Shown: piece after piece, positions 19,385 to 50,885 of the stretch
How the letters are laid out: the number at the start of each line of letters is the position of its first letter
Position numbering within the stretch: position 1 is the stretch's first letter
Origin: Octopus vulgaris
Lineage: Eukaryota
Direction of reading: 5' to 3'
Length of the DNA stretch: 64,000 nucleotides
NCBI GenBank assembly: GCA_951406725.2
Contig: OX597815.1
Location: forward strand, 127,968,001 to 128,032,000
Translations under genes and position numbers: made by a program
Notes under the pieces: model-generated
Databases searched by the model: none
Told to the model about the DNA's origin: nothing
The model's input: only the letters and a program-made list of their open reading frames with translations

Positions 19385-19960
19385 TTAGAGACAAAATATA
19401 GGTTTTCATCATATACAATCGTTTATAGAGTTTATTTTAGATCTTGATTATAATATTTATATATATTTTCATTGATAATTTATATATATTAGTCATTTCA
19501 AATATCTATAAAAGTAGATATAGACTAAAATGGATATTAGAATATGGATTTTCTACCTTATAAATTAAAGTTAATATTTAACATTATAGTCGATTTCGAT
19601 ATAATCATATTTAATAATAGAGTTTGTTATAAGTAAATTTTTATTTAGATTATATAGATTATTTATATCTTAAAAATATTGATTATATTTTATATTTTAG
19701 GTTTTGAAACCACCTGAAGAATGTCTCAAAGATGTGATGACACGAAACGATCGTAGTGGTTATTTATAATTGTTAAATTTTACTTTATATAAATTATTTT
19801 ATGTATTGGCTTAAGTCTTTCTTTGTTTGATTTGCATAATAGTGGTTTTGTCTCTAATAATAATATAATATAATATTTTACTATAAAATTGGATTCAATC
19901 CTAAATCTGATTTTTCCCTGTAAATTTGGATTTATTCCCTAATATTTATTATTATTATTT

Positions 19961-20017
<57 letters not shown>

Positions 20018-20345
20018 GTATGTATATATATATGTATATATATATGTATGTGTGTGTGTATATATATATATATAATAAAATATTAGGGAATAAATCCAAA
20101 CTTACAGGGAAAAATCAGATTTAGGATTGAATCCAATTTTATAGTAAAATATTATATTTATATTAAATTAGAGATAAAACCACTATTAGGCAAATCATAC
20201 AATGAAAAATTTAAGCCAATACATAAGATTAATTAATTTATATTATTTTAAATATATATCAAAATTATTAAAAAAGATAATTAGTATTGGCTTAAATTTT
20301 TCATTGTATGATTTGCCTAATAGTGGTTTTATCTCTAATTTAATA
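19385..20345. mobile_element. Two tail-to-tail AT-rich Penelope-derived (pLTR-like) units separated by (TA)n
   Basis: 19870-19946 is the reverse complement of 20079-20156; the second unit folds back on itself (20160-20222 versus 20284-20345). Same family at 33075-33380; related units at 29815-30050 and 44430-44550. Confidence 0.7.
19708..19761 (+). ncRNA. Type I minimal hammerhead ribozyme
   Basis: Stem I AACCAC/GTGGTT, CTGAAGA (19714-19720), stem II TGTC/GACA, GAAA, palindromic stem III CGATCG, GUA triplet. Confidence 0.85.
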
Positions 20346-29708: not shown

Positions 29709-29815
<107 letters not shown>

Positions 29816-30066
29816 ATATGAGGGAATATTATTCCAAACTTACAGGGAAAATTCAATTTAGAAATACAAAATCAAATTTCACAAAATATAATATATATAT
29901 ATAAATTAGAACAAAAACACCTTTTGTCAATTCAATAATGAAAAATTAAATTTATACCATTTAGAAAAAAATATATTATAGAAAGATTAAATATAAGATA
30001 AAACATACAATTATTGAATTGATAAAAGGTGTTTTTGTTCTAATTTATACACACACACACATGCAT

Positions 30067-33030: not shown

Positions 33031-33041
33031 TAATATGTATG

Positions 33042-33076
<35 letters not shown>

Positions 33077-33253
33077 ATAAATATTAGGGAATAAATCCAA
33101 ATTTACAGGGAAAAAATCAGAATTAGGATTAAATCCAATTTTATAGTAAAATATTATATAATATTAATTCGAGACAAAACCACTATTTTGCAAATCAAAC
33201 AAGGAAAGACTTAATCAATACATAAAAAATTTTAATATAAAGTAAATAAACCG

Positions 33254-33297
33254 CCACTACAATTGTTTCATGTCTTCAAATGACATTCGTCAGGTGG
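33254..33297 (-). ncRNA. Canonical type I minimal hammerhead ribozyme
   Basis: Reverse complement reads CCAC CTGACGA ATGTC atttgaa GACAT GAAA CAATTG TA GTGG; all core bases and all three stems are intact. Confidence 0.92.
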
Positions 33298-33392
33298 ATT
33301 TCCGATCTTCTAAACAGTTTTAATCAGTTTCCTTGTTTGATTTGCAAAATAGTGGTTTTGTCTTGAATTAATATTATATATATGTATATATA

Positions 33393-36300
33393 ACGGGAAG
33401 CTTTATGAAAATAGACAAAAGACGAAGGCAGGTTTACGGAAATAAACAAAAGACGAAGGCAGGTGGAATACAAACAAACAATTGTATTAGTATGGCGCTC
33501 AGGAAATATAAATAAAACAAGTCTTTAACGTTTCGAGCCTACGCTCTTCAACAGAAAAATACACAGAGAAGAAACAGAAAGAAGGAGAGAAAAAAATGCG
33601 TGCAGAGGCTAGCGAATCAACATGGCGATCTGATTTCGGCAAGAAATCAAAGATCAAACGTGAGACGCAAGAGCGAAATTAGGGGAGATAATAGGGTTAA
33701 ATGACCTCGCTCCAACATAAGAGTGTGTATGTGTGTATGAGAGAGTATTAGTGCATATGAGAGGTCTGGACGTGTGTATGTATATATGATGTGATGTGTA
33801 AAGTCGTATGGTGTAGTGTAGAGAGAGGAGATGAGGGAAGAGGGGGAGGGGAGGGGGAGTGGAGGGGAGAAAGAAAGGGGAGAAGAGGAGGGGGAGGGGG
33901 AGAAGGAAGGAGAGGAGAAGAGGAGGGGAGAGAAGGGGGAGAAGGAAGGAGAGGAGAAGAGGAGGGGAGAGGAGGAGGGAGGAGAGAGGGAGAGGAGGAG
34001 AGAGAGAGAGAAGGGGAGTGAGGGAGCAGAGAGGAAGAGGGAAGGGGAAGAGGGAAGAAGGAGGGAGGGAGAAAGAGGGAAGAAGGGAAGAGGAGTAGGG
34101 GTGAAAGGGTGAAAGGATGAAAGGATGAAGGACTGAAGAGAAGTAGGGGTCGGGGGGAGGTTAGATGAGGAGGGGGAGAAGGGGGTTAGATGAGGAGGAG
34201 GGGAGAGTTGAGACCAAATGGCATATAAGAGTGAAGAGAGAAGATTAATTCCTGTTCACGGCGCAAACGGGAATCCGGATGGCCTCTGTGCAAGGACAAA
34301 CCGAACACAGACAGGTGTTGCAAGGAGTGACCGGTGGAGCGGAAATGGCGTGAGACCGGTGTGTCGTTGGCAAGGTGGATGTCACGGAGGTGTTCCGTGA
34401 ACCGGTCAGCCAAGCGGCGTCCTGTTTGTCCGATGTACAGGGAATGGCAGAGAGAGCAAGAGACGTAATAGATAATATTGCTGGAGGTGCAGGTGAAGGA
34501 GTTGATGATGCGATAGGGTCGATGATGGGTGCCAGTGAGGAGGGTGGTGCTGGAGAGGTAAGGGCAAGTTCGGCAACGTGGGCGGGAGCAGGGGAACGAG
34601 CCAGGTTGGGAGGTAGGGTCAGGGAAGGAGCTATGGACCAAAAGGTCTCGAAGGTTATGGGCTCGTTTGAAAGAGGGGAGGGGTCGGTTAGGGAAGAGGT
34701 GTGAAGTGGATGGGTCGGACTGGAGATGACGGAAAGCTCGAAGAATGGTGTGTTGGAGAGGTAGGGTCGTGGGGTGGTAAGTGAGGGGAAAAGGGAGGCG
34801 GGAGACTACAGGGCGGGTTCGGGGAGAGAGAGCAGATACACGGTCCACGGACCGTGCTCTGGCAAGGGCGGTGTGGATAGTGGTGAGGGGTATCCACGTA
34901 GGATGAAGTGGTGAGCCATACGTTGAGACTGAGTCTCAAAGTCATGGTCGTCACTACAGATCCTACGTAGACGGAGGAATTGGGAATAGGGGATGGAAAG
35001 CTTGGTGTGTTCTGGGTGGGAGGAAGAGAAGTTGAGGTATGAGTGTGAGTCTGTGTGTTTGTAGTGAATGGAGGTGGTCAAAGTGGAGTGAAGAATGCTA
35101 ACCGAAATGTCGAGGAAGGAGACAGAGGTGTTGGAGATAGTGGAAGTGAAGTGGAGGGCTGGATGGAAAGATTGAACGAAAGAGAGGAAGGAATCTAGAT
35201 GTTCACGGGAGAGTGAGGTGGCACCGATAATGTCGTCAATGTAACGACTGTATAGTTCAGGAGTGGGACCAGTGAAATTAGAGAATATTTGGGCCTCAAC
35301 ATAGCCAACGAACAAGTTCGCATAGTTGGGGCTCATTCGCGTTCCCATGGCCACTCCCGAGACCTGATGGTAGAACTCGCCCGTGAACGAGAAGCAGTTA
35401 AGAGTAAGGACAAATTCGGCCAGATGAATGAGTGTGGAGTGTCAGGTTCAGGGTTGGAGCGGAGGTCGAGAAAGTGTTGAAGTGCCTGCAGTCCTTTGTG
35501 GTGAGGGATAACGGTATAGAGGCTCTGGATGTCCATAGTAAAAAGGATTTTCGAGGAGCCGGGAGGAAAGGAGAAAGAGTTGAAAAACCGGAGAGCATGG
35601 TTGGTATCGTGGATGTGGGAGGGAAGAGACGCCACTAGGGGGGCAAGGACACGGTCGAGGTATTTAGAGATGAGCTCCGTGGGGCAGTTACAGGCGGAGA
35701 TGATGGGGCGGCCAGGGTTGTTGGGTTTGTGGATTTTGGGGAGGAAGTAAATGGTGGGGGTACGTGGGGTTCGCACAATTAGGTTGGATGCGGTGTGGGG
35801 GAGACGGGAGGACGAGATGAGGTCGTGGACAGTAGAGGATACCGTCTGTTGGTAGCTATGTGTGGGGTTAGAGGACAGAGGGGAGTAGAAGGTGTCATTG
35901 AGTTGGCGGAGAGCCTCGGCCCTGTAGAGGTCCACGTGCCACACCACTACAGCTCCACCCTTGTCAGCTGGTTTGATGATAATGTCAGCGCGCCGTTGGA
36001 GGGAATGAAGAGCCAAGAGCTCGGTCGGGGAGATGTAGAGGCGGCGTTGGCACCTGGAGAAGTTGAACCGCTCCAATGCACGCTGACAAGCGCCCGCGAA
36101 AAGATCCACTGCTAGGAACTAGCCGGGGGCAGGCGTCCACGGGGATGGTCGGCGGCCCAGGTCAGTGAAGCAGTCCTCTATGTTGGATGCGGCGCACAAA
36201 GCTGTGGACATCAACTCGCGTCTGGAATTCCTTACAGGATGGAGTGAGGGGGATGAAACGCAGACCCCTACGAAGGATGGAGCATTCCGCCGCAGAGAGG

Positions 36301-44112: not shown

Positions 44113-44544
44113 TGGTGTGGGAAAATATTTGAGTTCGAATTATTGGGGAAAAGATAGGGAATATAGAGAGAAATAAGTAAATGAAAGCAGAAATAAGATC
44201 TATAAAGATATTGTAGATGCTGTTCTATTATTTGAGGAAAATGGTGTATAGAAGTGATAAAAATGTTTCCTGTACATGGCATGTAAGATCCAATAGCAGT
44301 TCATATTTATTCATTTCAAAGCATGGAGCTGTGGAATCAGTGTTGATAATTTGAAAGGGTTTTGTGGTGTGAATGAAAATTTGAGAATGTGTTGGTAGTA
44401 TTTAGGGATAGATGGAGAGAGGATATATATATAAATTAGAAAAAACACCTTTTATCAATTCAATAATGAAAAATTAAATTATTCCATCTAGAAAATTACA
44501 TATTATAGAAAGATTAAATATAAGTTTGGAATAATATTCCCTCA

Positions 44545-44624
<80 letters not shown>

Positions 44625-44754: not shown

Positions 44755-45338
44755 TCAAATAAGATTGTTGAAGGTTACCAAAAGGGTATTAGGTTTATGT
44801 ACTGTGTGGTGATTTAGGTTGCATTTAAATCTGTGGTAAAATTTGAAGGTATGAAAAAAGCAGTAGTTACATGTACCTTGGGCCTCATTATAATTATTTA
44901 GTAGTAGTGAAGAGTTATGTTTTACTAAGTGGAATGCTTCTTTTAAGCATAACTTACAGCCTGACTGTTGACCCTGGTATGGAAGTCCTGAATTTATTGT
45001 GGACCATGCTAAGTTATAGGGAATACCCCTATTTTTAAGGTGATGTATATGACTGGAGAGGTTTGTGGATTTATTGTGTCTCTCATATTTAAATGAATTG
45101 ATATGTGGGGAGTATCTCTGTTTAAAATTTATAGTTGACCCTATATACATGGTTGTAGAGTTGTGTAGCATGCTGAAGGCAGTGCATTTGTAAATTATGT
45201 TAGACTTTCTGTTATGGGTTTGTAGAAGGCAAATGGTTCCAAGGCAGAATTTACATGCTAATGCATTGTGGGGATTATTCTCTGGAATGGAGGAAGTAGT
45301 ACTCTGTAGGGAGAGGTTAGATTGGTCTATGTAATTAA

Positions 45339-45403
<65 letters not shown>

Positions 45404-46730
45404 CTATCGTTATTATTTATCCTATCTGTATTTGTAGTGGCTGTCAGGGTGCTATTATTCTGGTTAGTGTTAGTAGGATTGGTAGGGTTTTCATTATGGT
45501 CTAAAGTATTGGGTTCGATGTTGGAGCTATGAATGTGTTGGGTGTTTGTGTGTTCAGAGTTGTTTCAGTGTATATTTTGATAATAGAGAGAAAGTTTTCA
45601 TCTATTTGAGGCTGTTACAATTGACTTAAAGAATAGAGCATCCACCACATGTTTTTGGTTGCTTAGGGGTAGTCATCATCATCATCGTTATAATCTATAT
45701 TTTTAGAAATTAGAGATGGGTTATAGGGCCCATTATTGTTAGCTGTTTTAGCTTTTGTCCTAGTGTTATACATGTACGCATGAGATCTAAATTGTCTTGA
45801 TCTGTGTTCTACCAGGGTTCTAGTAAAATGCATATATGGTCTGTTATGTTTATGATGGTTAGCATGTCATGGTGATATGTCTTGAGATATATTTTGCTTG
45901 AGCCTAGTATTACAGAAGTATTTTATTTGTTGAGAGAAGCCACTGGCAGTGAGTGCTTGGCTGTAATATGGGCCGTGGTTATTGAATATTTTTTCAGTGG
46001 CTGAGAGGTCAGATATATGAATTAAAATACCCTTAACTATATTATCGAAAGTGGACTTATGGTAATTAGAATTCATGTACACAACAGGTTAGGTTAATAA
46101 TATGGCGAGTATTGGGAGGTCTGTAATCTTAAAATAACATCGTAAAAAAATGGGCGGTTTTAAGGGAATTTTCAAAAGTAATGTATAGGTTGAGGTTAGA
46201 GAAGAATTTGTGTAGATCTTTCCTAAGTCGTTGTAATGAGGATTTATTAACACTCTTGGTGACTAGCAAAGTGTTATCTCTGTATAGACCTCCCTTGATA
46301 TTAGGGAAGTGTGTTCCAAGCTGATGGAGTAAGTATAGTCCAATAAGGTCTGTGACTGGGGCAGAGTCTGATGATCGCATAGTGATGTCAAAGAATTTGC
46401 TATAATTATTGTTAGTGTTATAGTGTTTGGCCCAGCACCAGAATTTGTCTTTGAAAGAAATGAGAGTTTTCCTGGCATTGAGAATTATGTTAATTTCTAG
46501 TAGGGTTAGGCTGGTTAGATTCCTGGCTAGAAGGAGGAACTGATTTAGAAGTTTGGAGGAAATAAATGAATAGTAATTATTTATATTGAATTGTAGGAAT
46601 AAAGATTTTATCCAGAATGCTCTTGCTTATTCTTCTCATGTCAGATATGGTAGGGCATATGGAGTGTATAGATGGTTTTGTTGTGAAGTCCTTATGATCA
46701 ATAAGGTTGAAGTGTGGGCCTATATAACAG
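44755..46730 (-). mobile_element. Decayed Penelope-like element, Naiad-like (RT plus C-terminal GIY-YIG)
   Basis: DHKDF...ISKSILDKI, SDSAPVTDLIGLYLL, GLYRDN (GLYRDD-type), NIIYKC...YIGST..FKQRY..H..SF, CKLCLKE. Confidence 0.85.
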
Positions 46731-48877: not shown

Positions 48878-50885
48878 ATGAGGAGAGATGTGTGAAGAAG
48901 TGCCACTCCCAAACAATTGAAGGAATCCGGGGTAGAGGTAGACCCAGGAAGACATGGGATGAGGTGGCCAAGCATGACCTTCGAACGTTGGGTCTCATAG
49001 AGGCAATGACAGAAGACTGAGATCTCTGGAGATATGCTGTGACTGCGAAGACCTGACAAATAATGTGAGTTCATGGCTGTTTCCTGCACCAGCTTCACAT
49101 AGAAGTCCCAGTCCTTCCAAAATGCCTTGGATCATAGGACGGCCTGCTGTACTTACCTTGGATCATAGTCCGACCTGCTGTGCTTGAGGAGACTTATTGA
49201 GTCAAGTACATCAGCATTAAAAATCAAATGGAAATTGTGGTAGCGATACCTGTGCCGGTGGCAGTAAAATGGGATCTTTTCATTTTCAAGGCCTGATTGT
49301 CAGATTTTTCTAGTCAACTAAATAATTTGAAACTTCATATACTGGTAGAGTGTCTCAAAAGAAAACACTAGTTTCAACTTGTTTATTTGAGAAAAATGTA
49401 TTTTATAACTTTAAACGGAGATTAAATCTGCGAATTTTAACCAATCGTATTGTTTGTTTTCATTTGAAATAATTAACTGCATTATCTTAGTGTGACGTAG
49501 AAAGTTATTTTGTGACGTAGACAGCTGTGCGTAGGTCTGTGTTTTGTGTTTTTATAGAGCATTGATGTACATGTGTGTGTGTGTGTGCTTGATGGGGTGT
49601 GGGAGACAGAAAGTATGTTGTGTAAGTGAAGTACTTCTGTTAGTGTGTGTGAAGAGACAGAGAGAGTAACGTGTGAAAGAGAGAGATAACTGAAATTTTT
49701 TACTCGGTGTATGTGTATATGTATGTATGCATGTATGTGTGTGTGTGTGTATGTATCTATGTATGTGTGTGTGTGTGTGTGTATGTATGTGTATGTATGT
49801 GTGTGTATGTATGTGTGTGTGTATGTATGTATGTATGTATGGCCGATTCAGTGTTTACATTATTTCGAGTTAAAACGAAAGATTACCAAAAAAAATTTTG
49901 TCTATATCTTCGATCACTGTCATTATTCCATTGAGTCAACCTCATTATTTTCTACATAGCAAAGGTAATCTTTCGTTTTAACTTGAAATAATGTAAACAC
50001 TGAATCGGCCATACATACATACACACACACATACATACACGCACATACATACACATACACACACACACATACATAGATACATACACACACACACACATAC
50101 ATGCATACATACATATACACATACACCGAGTAAAAAATTTCAGTTATCACGGAAAGGTCTACTACAAACGAAAGATTGCCAAAGATAAAAAGTTACAGAA
50201 ATAAAAGTTACACGAATAAAGTAAGGAATAAAAATCACAGAAAATATACAAAAATTTACAAAAACTAAGTTAGTTATATAATATATAAGTTAGTTAATAA
50301 TATATTTAAAAAATGTGAATAAAAACGAAAGGAATACGGTAACCAGATGTTTACATTTCACGTATGTTAACTATGTCAGCAAAACAGCCGTTTACGTCTA
50401 TTGAGACGGAGTAAATAATATGAAGCCAAAAGACCGAATACCATTGGTTAAAATTCTAATTATTAAACAACGTTAAACTTAGAAATTACAATTCCGTTTT
50501 CATTCTGGTTTACAATTATGTTTTCTTTTGACACATTCTACCAGCATACGAAGTTTCAAATTGTTTGGTTAAGTAGGAAAAATCTGACAAATCAGGCCTT
50601 GCAAATGAAAAGATCCGTAAAATGCACCATCCGTATGTGGCCAATGCCAGCACAGCCTTGACTGGCTTCCATGCTGGTGGCACGTAAAAAGCACCCACTA
50701 CACTCATGGAGTGGTTGGCGTTAGGAAGGGCATCCAGCTGTAGAAACACTGCCAGATCAGACTGGAGCCTGGTGCAGCCTCCTGGCTTCCCAGACCCCGG
50801 TTGAACTGTCCAACCCATGCTAGCATGGAAAACGGCCGTTAAACAATGATGATGAAGGTGATGATGATGATAATAATGATGATGA
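48875..50885 (+). mobile_element. RTE 3' end interrupted by a Merlin-like MITE
   Basis: GRGRPRKTWDEV... followed by the 3' UTR, which resumes at 50617 and ends in (ATG)n. Confidence 0.8.
49272..50616. mobile_element. Merlin-like non-autonomous DNA transposon
   Basis: About 95-bp TIRs GGATC...GATCC; exact 8-bp TSD GTAAAATG (49264-49271 and 50617-50624). Confidence 0.85.

Follow-up and report, generated by a model that had tools for sequence, protein, structure and literature searches.

A hammerhead-bearing fold-back unit in the octopus genome as a probable spliced-leader by-product of a Penelope-like element

How Penelope-like elements (PLEs) retain introns whilst passing through an RNA intermediate is a question that has stood since 2003. 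In Drosophila virilis Penelope, as set out in PMC2377424 and PMC4209133, the promoter lies in a pseudo-LTR with a short first exon, copies are arranged in tandem, the intron ends beside helix I of a hammerhead ribozyme, and inverted, 5'-truncated arms occur; all of these features recur in the octopus element described below. Adineta vaga Penelope leaves solo pLTRs and head-to-head palindromes (PMC3846280), much like the isolated terminal repeats and head-to-head arms seen here; for both palindromes and intron retention, that paper proposed an antisense template, gave an unspliced sense template as the alternative, and left the choice undecided. For Anolis Poseidon PAc, in vitro work (PMC11167929) has the PLE protein begin reverse transcription internally, at two sites with a ‘tail’ between them, extending both DNA strands at AT-rich targets on uncleaved RNA, and the octopus copies would fit the same pattern.

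The unit at 33075-33380 of the window (the whole 64,000-nt stretch of Octopus vulgaris DNA analysed here) reads on the minus strand, and consists of a type I hammerhead (33297-33254) together with an inverted repeat in which 33155-33207 pairs with 33328-33380 over 53 bp with a single mismatch (Table 1). A preliminary description, made from the window's letters, had seen a non-coding, PLE-derived, ribozyme-bearing unit with a near-perfect 53-bp inverted repeat around the hammerhead, and this is borne out, with the ribozyme placed on the minus strand. Because of the inverted repeat, the predicted fold is more stable than any of 100 shuffles (z = -10.8; 0/100 equally stable). Over the hammerhead region, the unit shares 97.8% identity with a PLE that has Hydra-clade features (an ORF of about 840 aa with RT and GIY-YIG), and its exon 2 part matches unspliced long copies (L176, L180 and L183) at 227 of 232 nt; exon-1 positions +10 to +27 are kept (33324-33307), and the three nucleotides of filler would fit a short slip on exon 1. 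Two neighbouring features deserve mention in their own right: a second, unrelated PLE at 33384-36118 (minus strand; RT and GIY-YIG pieces with weak Pfam matches) ends in the same TA repeat, and its 3' region resembles a hammerhead near 33530-33560, though the core there is altered; and a fold-back unit with arms of ~50 bp, possibly the short form of another element family, sits within (TGTA)n/(CATA)n at 49784-50059, where an Rfam match falls on simple repeats, below threshold.

Table 1. Features of the unit and of its relatives, in window coordinates
Feature	Position	Strand	Basis or remark
Inverted arm	33328..33380	+	53-nt second copy, ends at the inner, tail-less start site
Filler, 3 nt, at head-to-head junction	33325..33327	-	sequence
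Exon 1 remnant (of a 27-nt first exon)	33307..33324	-	exon then GT at 5 genomic loci
Splice junction	between 33307 and 33306	-	exon 1/exon 2 border
Exon 2 portion of PLE 5' leader: hammerhead, spacer, tail	33075..33306	-	match to long copies
Type I hammerhead, PLE kind, palindromic stem III loop	33254..33297	-	predicted cut between 33258 and 33257
80-nt ‘tail’ between two putative RT start sites	33075..33154	-	mechanism from PMC11167929 (available part)
Target repeat, (TA)n/(TATG)n, where a decayed LINE ends	33033..33074	.	
Unspliced, 5'-truncated copy of sister long element (~300 nt of intron, hammerhead, tail)	19385..19960	+	
Head-to-head copy truncated 3' of hammerhead	20075..20345	-	
More distant relative, truncated before hammerhead	29815..30050	-	72-78% identity over tail region
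Same subfamily as 29815-30050; short inverted arm carries tail	44430..44550	-	

The type I PLE hammerhead has the CUGAnGA core, stem I (4 bp), stem II (5 bp), GAAA, the GUA triplet, and a stem III of 1 bp around a palindromic loop. Ten core-like matches occur in the window and only two, the target and one at 19714 on the plus strand, have a complementary stem I. The motif had been called fully canonical, which goes too far: the G10.1-C11.1 pair, highly conserved according to PMC4209133, is missing, no hammerhead appears among Rfam's 109 window matches at E <= 1, and the hammerhead stems are absent from the unit's predicted minimum-energy fold. Across 11 relatives, core and stems are nearly invariant, with 93.9% of cells paired and the first pair of stem II unpaired in seven. 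As to covariation, a check proposed at the outset, 2 of 12 pairs vary on both sides, one being the CAAUUG/CGAUCG palindrome whose two forms had already been remarked upon, and 32 of 500 shuffles do as well; covariation support is thin, since most pairs never vary. The short palindromic helix III of this predicted ribozyme suggests weak, dimer-dependent cleavage, following PMC4209133 (in part). A neutrality count on the dispersed copies (changes in the core 1/348, stems 1/521, rest 33/1413) was dropped, as overlapping loci had been counted twice and subfamily differences taken as mutations; private changes in the dispersed ribozyme copies are too few for a selection test.

Searching the genome with the DNA sequence turned up 1,943 candidates, of which the best 40 were scored, yielding 30 loci. 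Among these listed matches all 30 loci have a common 3' end followed by (TA)n; the inverted arm begins 77-81 nt from that end in 27 of them, and runs from tens to nearly 200 nt in length, such that the 53-bp repeat is one value of a variable insertion feature and not, as previously supposed, a conserved structure. Given the ranking bias of that search, we also took every exact match of a 33-mer (75 genome-wide, all read; control 0). This set has two 3' ends, 80 nt apart, and a sharp 5' boundary at an initiator-like site: 17 arms begin exactly at +1, three go 1-6 nt further, and 55 begin within exon 1. The preliminary description had predicted a defined short form, and held that it would fail were all copies random truncations of a coding PLE; none of the 75 passes this one fixed 5' point by more than 6 nt, and what it had missed is that this fixed point marks where a first exon, later spliced, begins. 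An extra G at the 5' end, such as a cap would leave, is seen in 7 of the 17 (p = 0.02), though in about half of these it could equally belong to the partner arm. Inspection by eye found no downstream promoter element at the canonical spacing. Head-to-head pairs combine one tailed and one tail-less arm in 90 of 91 cases, part of them coming from searches that favour tailed copies, and pairs with two tailed arms were never seen.

A position-ordered sample (97 arms from contig C1, in genome order, out of the first 100 of the genome's 4,098 exact matches to one 30-mer) contains 43 spliced arms (38 by rule and 5 by eye) and 16 unspliced, the remainder being truncated at or before the junction; no locus in this sample mixes a spliced with an unspliced arm. 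Just one of the 97 begins precisely at the hammerhead cut. Ends within 30 nt after the cut are enriched (27 of 77 at-risk arms, as against 5 of 50 within the ribozyme itself and 7 of 84 beyond, on the 3' side; Fisher p 0.0015 and 0.00004, in bins picked after seeing the data), which is only suggestive that cut RNA is copied as well; AT-rich microhomology and trimming could produce the same pile-up. We also note a small palindromic array at G000:C6:72319127-72319452, with five hammerhead-junction matches at 69-nt spacing in two orientations.

What lies upstream of the hammerhead distinguishes the short units from the long copies. Where short units have their 27-nt leader, long copies carry a pyrimidine tract and AG; the leader itself, followed by GT and preceded by an initiator-like TCA+1CTT site, occurs at five genomic loci, in four of which an intron of ~1.1 kb ends with AG exactly at the short-unit junction. 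The 3' region of long copies runs from an initiator-like start through an exon of 23-27 nt and a GT..AG intron of 1.0-1.8 kb to the hammerhead and tail, and the exon-intron-hammerhead layout is common to five or more subfamilies. Exact junctions, counted per arm and not per insertion with search patterns of unequal length, number 75 spliced and 26 unspliced, plus one with a third junction, in the target's subfamily, and 414 spliced and 371 unspliced in the sister subfamily; reversed-pattern controls gave 0. The sister subfamily has two GT donors 4 nt apart, both in use, among the matches listed, where both exist; for another variant, 56 counterparts are unspliced and exon 1 matches, and each of the short variants checked could be traced to an unspliced parent sharing its diagnostic letters. 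The 1.1-kb intron is missing exactly at its splice signals, so the units were likely copied from a spliced mRNA; this precise loss of the parent's GT..AG intron is what marks a processed retrocopy.

Splicing seems not to be confined to transcripts from the exon-1 start. At 5 of 43 ORF ends, this acceptor is instead spliced to a donor ~190 nt past the stop codon (21 retain the donor; 17 unclassified), and 3 of 30 spliced sister arms, at two loci, have 100-300 nt of upstream promoter region attached, so that not every spliced copy came from start-site mRNA; together these suggest that read-through RNA is sometimes spliced too. Loci L132, L135, L140, L146, L152 and L170 are compact, the whole 3 kb 3' region having been spliced out from the ~190-nt post-stop donor, and in L170 the compact form flanks the ORF on both sides. 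In contigs from four presumed-RNA runs, compared with the sister exon 2-ORF sequence (that is, without the intron), cover of the short unit is far above that of the ORF; one contig has a spliced junction with 154 loose letters and may be a genomic retrocopy, and none of those listed bridges junction and ORF.

The coding partner that the preliminary description had recommended looking for is present. A GIY-YIG domain search returned 18,415 candidates, and among the best 150, which were scored, are many open frames of 820-862 codons with RT and GIY-YIG. We read 20 ORF-bearing regions and five exon loci in full; in most of the 20, hammerhead and tail stand before the ORF and/or again ~3-3.5 kb after it, and in tandem copies the tail leads into the start codon (ATG) of the RT/GIY-YIG ORF, which is 820-860 aa long (in intact elements the tail continues into the 5' UTR and ATG). 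The parent has this single ORF, with RT followed by a C-terminal GIY-YIG, on motifs read by eye; its translations show DKT, a CxCx5C linker and CxxC plus CxH around a conserved E/N, with no CCHH, and have KWK where the RWK motif of the Hydra clade is expected. Pfam gave no match on the 421-aa C-terminal piece, and 40 protein homologues were recovered, 39 at 31-42% identity, the named ones from Argonauta and Octopus. In the ORFs of L156-L171 the RT thumb and the endonuclease are separated by an asparagine-rich insert whose length varies, a feature also known from Adineta Penelope ORFs (PMC3846280). The (TA)n insertion, hammerhead in a pseudo-LTR, tail and inverted truncated arm are all present as well. 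Promoter region plus an open ORF (839-841 codons) occur together in L163 and L165, of the sister subfamily; within the 20 ORF regions and five exon loci, no single copy of the target's own subfamily combines promoter and unbroken ORF, and L183 is frameshifted and without the upstream exon.

The four relatives in the window that were previously listed are all where they had been placed. That at 19385-19960, listed then as having the same fold, is a copy of a long, coding, intron-bearing element: it matches L063 at 91% over 590 nt, and its homologues reach upstream to variable lengths, into an ORF end with the CxCx5C linker and GIY-YIG. The other three do lack the ribozyme, as described, being copies cut short before it. 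Both distant relatives end at an identical 5' position (29997 and 44524), which could be the hammerhead cut site or a subfamily hotspot, and a decayed Hydra-like PLE ORF (44755-46626, minus strand; an RT piece, asparagine-rich linker and GIY-YIG) stands upstream of the unit at 44430-44550.

Synthesising these observations, we propose that the unit is exon 1 joined to the hammerhead-bearing exon 2, and very probably a dead-end cDNA of the PLE's spliced-mRNA 5' leader, made by the element's own RT; it resembles a processed pseudogene of that leader. The best-surviving alternative, which we nonetheless consider improbable, is that the spliced form was derived from mRNA on one or a few occasions only and has since multiplied by itself, from short masters, as a SINE-like, non-autonomous PLE. 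Its defined ends and high copy number would suit such a family, PLE promoters are partly internal (PMC2377424) and non-autonomous PLEs have been described from Chlamys (PMC8557442); but exon 1 lacks its start in 55 of the 75 copies, two donors are in parallel use, and each short variant checked is accompanied by an unspliced parent bearing its diagnostic letters. For this last reason the unit need not be the non-autonomous family of its own that it was first taken for, and the parent element accounts for the ribozyme's conservation with no need of a self-propagating family.

Far less plausible is a non-LTR retrozyme or satellite, in which monomers would be cut by the hammerhead, circularised and reinserted, close to the retrozyme-like satellite of the preliminary description. 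The type I hammerhead, length of ~260-300 nt and AT-richness do recall non-LTR retrozymes (PMC7229834, in part), but unit ends lie at the exon start and tail sites and not at the site of cleavage, where the single arm mentioned above begins, and a lone hammerhead whose stem III is just 1 bp should act poorly as a monomer (PMC4209133). The 333 loci examined, which overlap in part, contain 344 hammerhead cores, with two same-strand neighbours within 600 bp and no tandem arrays among them, which argues that this is not a retrozyme. Equally hard to credit is a DNA deletion of the missing 1.1 kb in one master copy, without splicing: transposons often carry internal deletions and genomic sequence alone shows the junction, but the GT..AG borders are exact in several subfamilies, and two alternative donors and a third, distant one are joined to the same acceptor.

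Returning to the spliced-leader reading, we suggest the following, speculative, route. A promoter at exon 1 would supply the mRNA for the next tandem copy downstream; the PLE protein would bind near the tail and begin reverse transcription internally at two sites, as seen in vitro for another PLE, and on an mRNA that starts ~260 nt ahead of those sites this would yield short units, internal initiation being what would keep the by-product cDNAs short. Two nicks, one on either DNA strand, could then prime one cDNA from each start site, and the two, joined head to head at their 3' ends, would produce the inverted repeat; the almost strict pairing of tailed with tail-less arms points to just such an arrangement. 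Full-length copies would need read-through RNA, which, if spliced, would lose either the intron or the promoter region, and intron-bearing copies may persist mainly since only they can found new generations; the loss suffered by spliced read-through copies fits selection as the reason why intron-bearing copies dominate the long elements, and a selective argument for Penelope's intron has been raised before (PMC2377424, in part). Within the 333 loci, no spliced leader continues into an ORF. The position of the transcription start, the twin priming and the role of selection are what we infer from the pattern of copies. Splicing can affect both arms of a palindrome; only a sense template allows this, and it stands against the antisense model considered in PMC3846280.

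More broadly, we lean, if only slightly, towards reading the genome as a record of the RNAs that the PLE RT copies (capped spliced mRNA, giving the short leader units; read-through RNA, giving the long copies, mostly unspliced but in some cases spliced; possibly hammerhead-cut RNA), one that would show a sense template, twin priming of each insertion from both start sites and intron retention through selection for the promoter, not through any failure to copy spliced RNA. The hundreds of copies with exact splice junctions, together with palindromes spliced in both arms, speak for a sense template and indicate that splicing does not block copying, which suggests that PLEs, known for retaining introns, may readily copy spliced RNA too. 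The strict tailed/tail-less pairing is genomic support for the joint working of the start sites seen in vitro (PMC11167929, in part). Short hammerhead-bearing families that repeat libraries list as ‘SINE’ or ‘retrozyme’ may have the same by-product origin, and their ends would then map a PLE's promoter and splice sites without RNA data. The open literature yielded no account of spliced retrocopies of PLEs (listings and abstracts; subscription papers, including the PLE papers of 2003 and 2005-2006, and Repbase fell outside this scope), nor, for the Hydra clade, any mention of spliced by-products in the available part of PMC8557442.

Set against known systems, the parent shares with Hydra-clade PLEs (Craig et al. 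2021, PMC8557442) the C-terminal GIY-YIG, DKT, CxCx5C, CxxC/CxH, (TA)n and hammerhead, and its N-terminal half aligns by eye with Hydra-1_Obim. It differs in its length of 6 kb or more, where published elements are mostly under 3 kb, in a 3-3.5 kb 3' region with promoter and intron, in KWK for RWK, and in the asparagine-rich insert; judged by its motifs and by comparison with Hydra-1_Obim by eye, we regard it as a new PLE family with Hydra-clade features. The intron, 75 nt in D. virilis Penelope, is 1.0-1.8 kb in the octopus element, and whereas genomic Penelope copies keep it, about half or more of the junction-reaching copies here are spliced. Compared with Poseidon PAc, the octopus tail is 80 nt long and lies upstream of the ATG; spliced templates and the pairing of start sites within one insertion were not covered by the PAc study, in its available part. 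Unlike the Adineta vaga model, octopus arms can both be spliced. Non-LTR retrozymes (PMC7229834; bioRxiv 10.64898/2026.07.22.740005) are likewise short, non-coding, PLE-related and equipped with a type I hammerhead, but form head-to-tail tandems, whereas the octopus units are dispersed, single or head-to-head, and bounded by a splice-defined exon and by putative RT starts.
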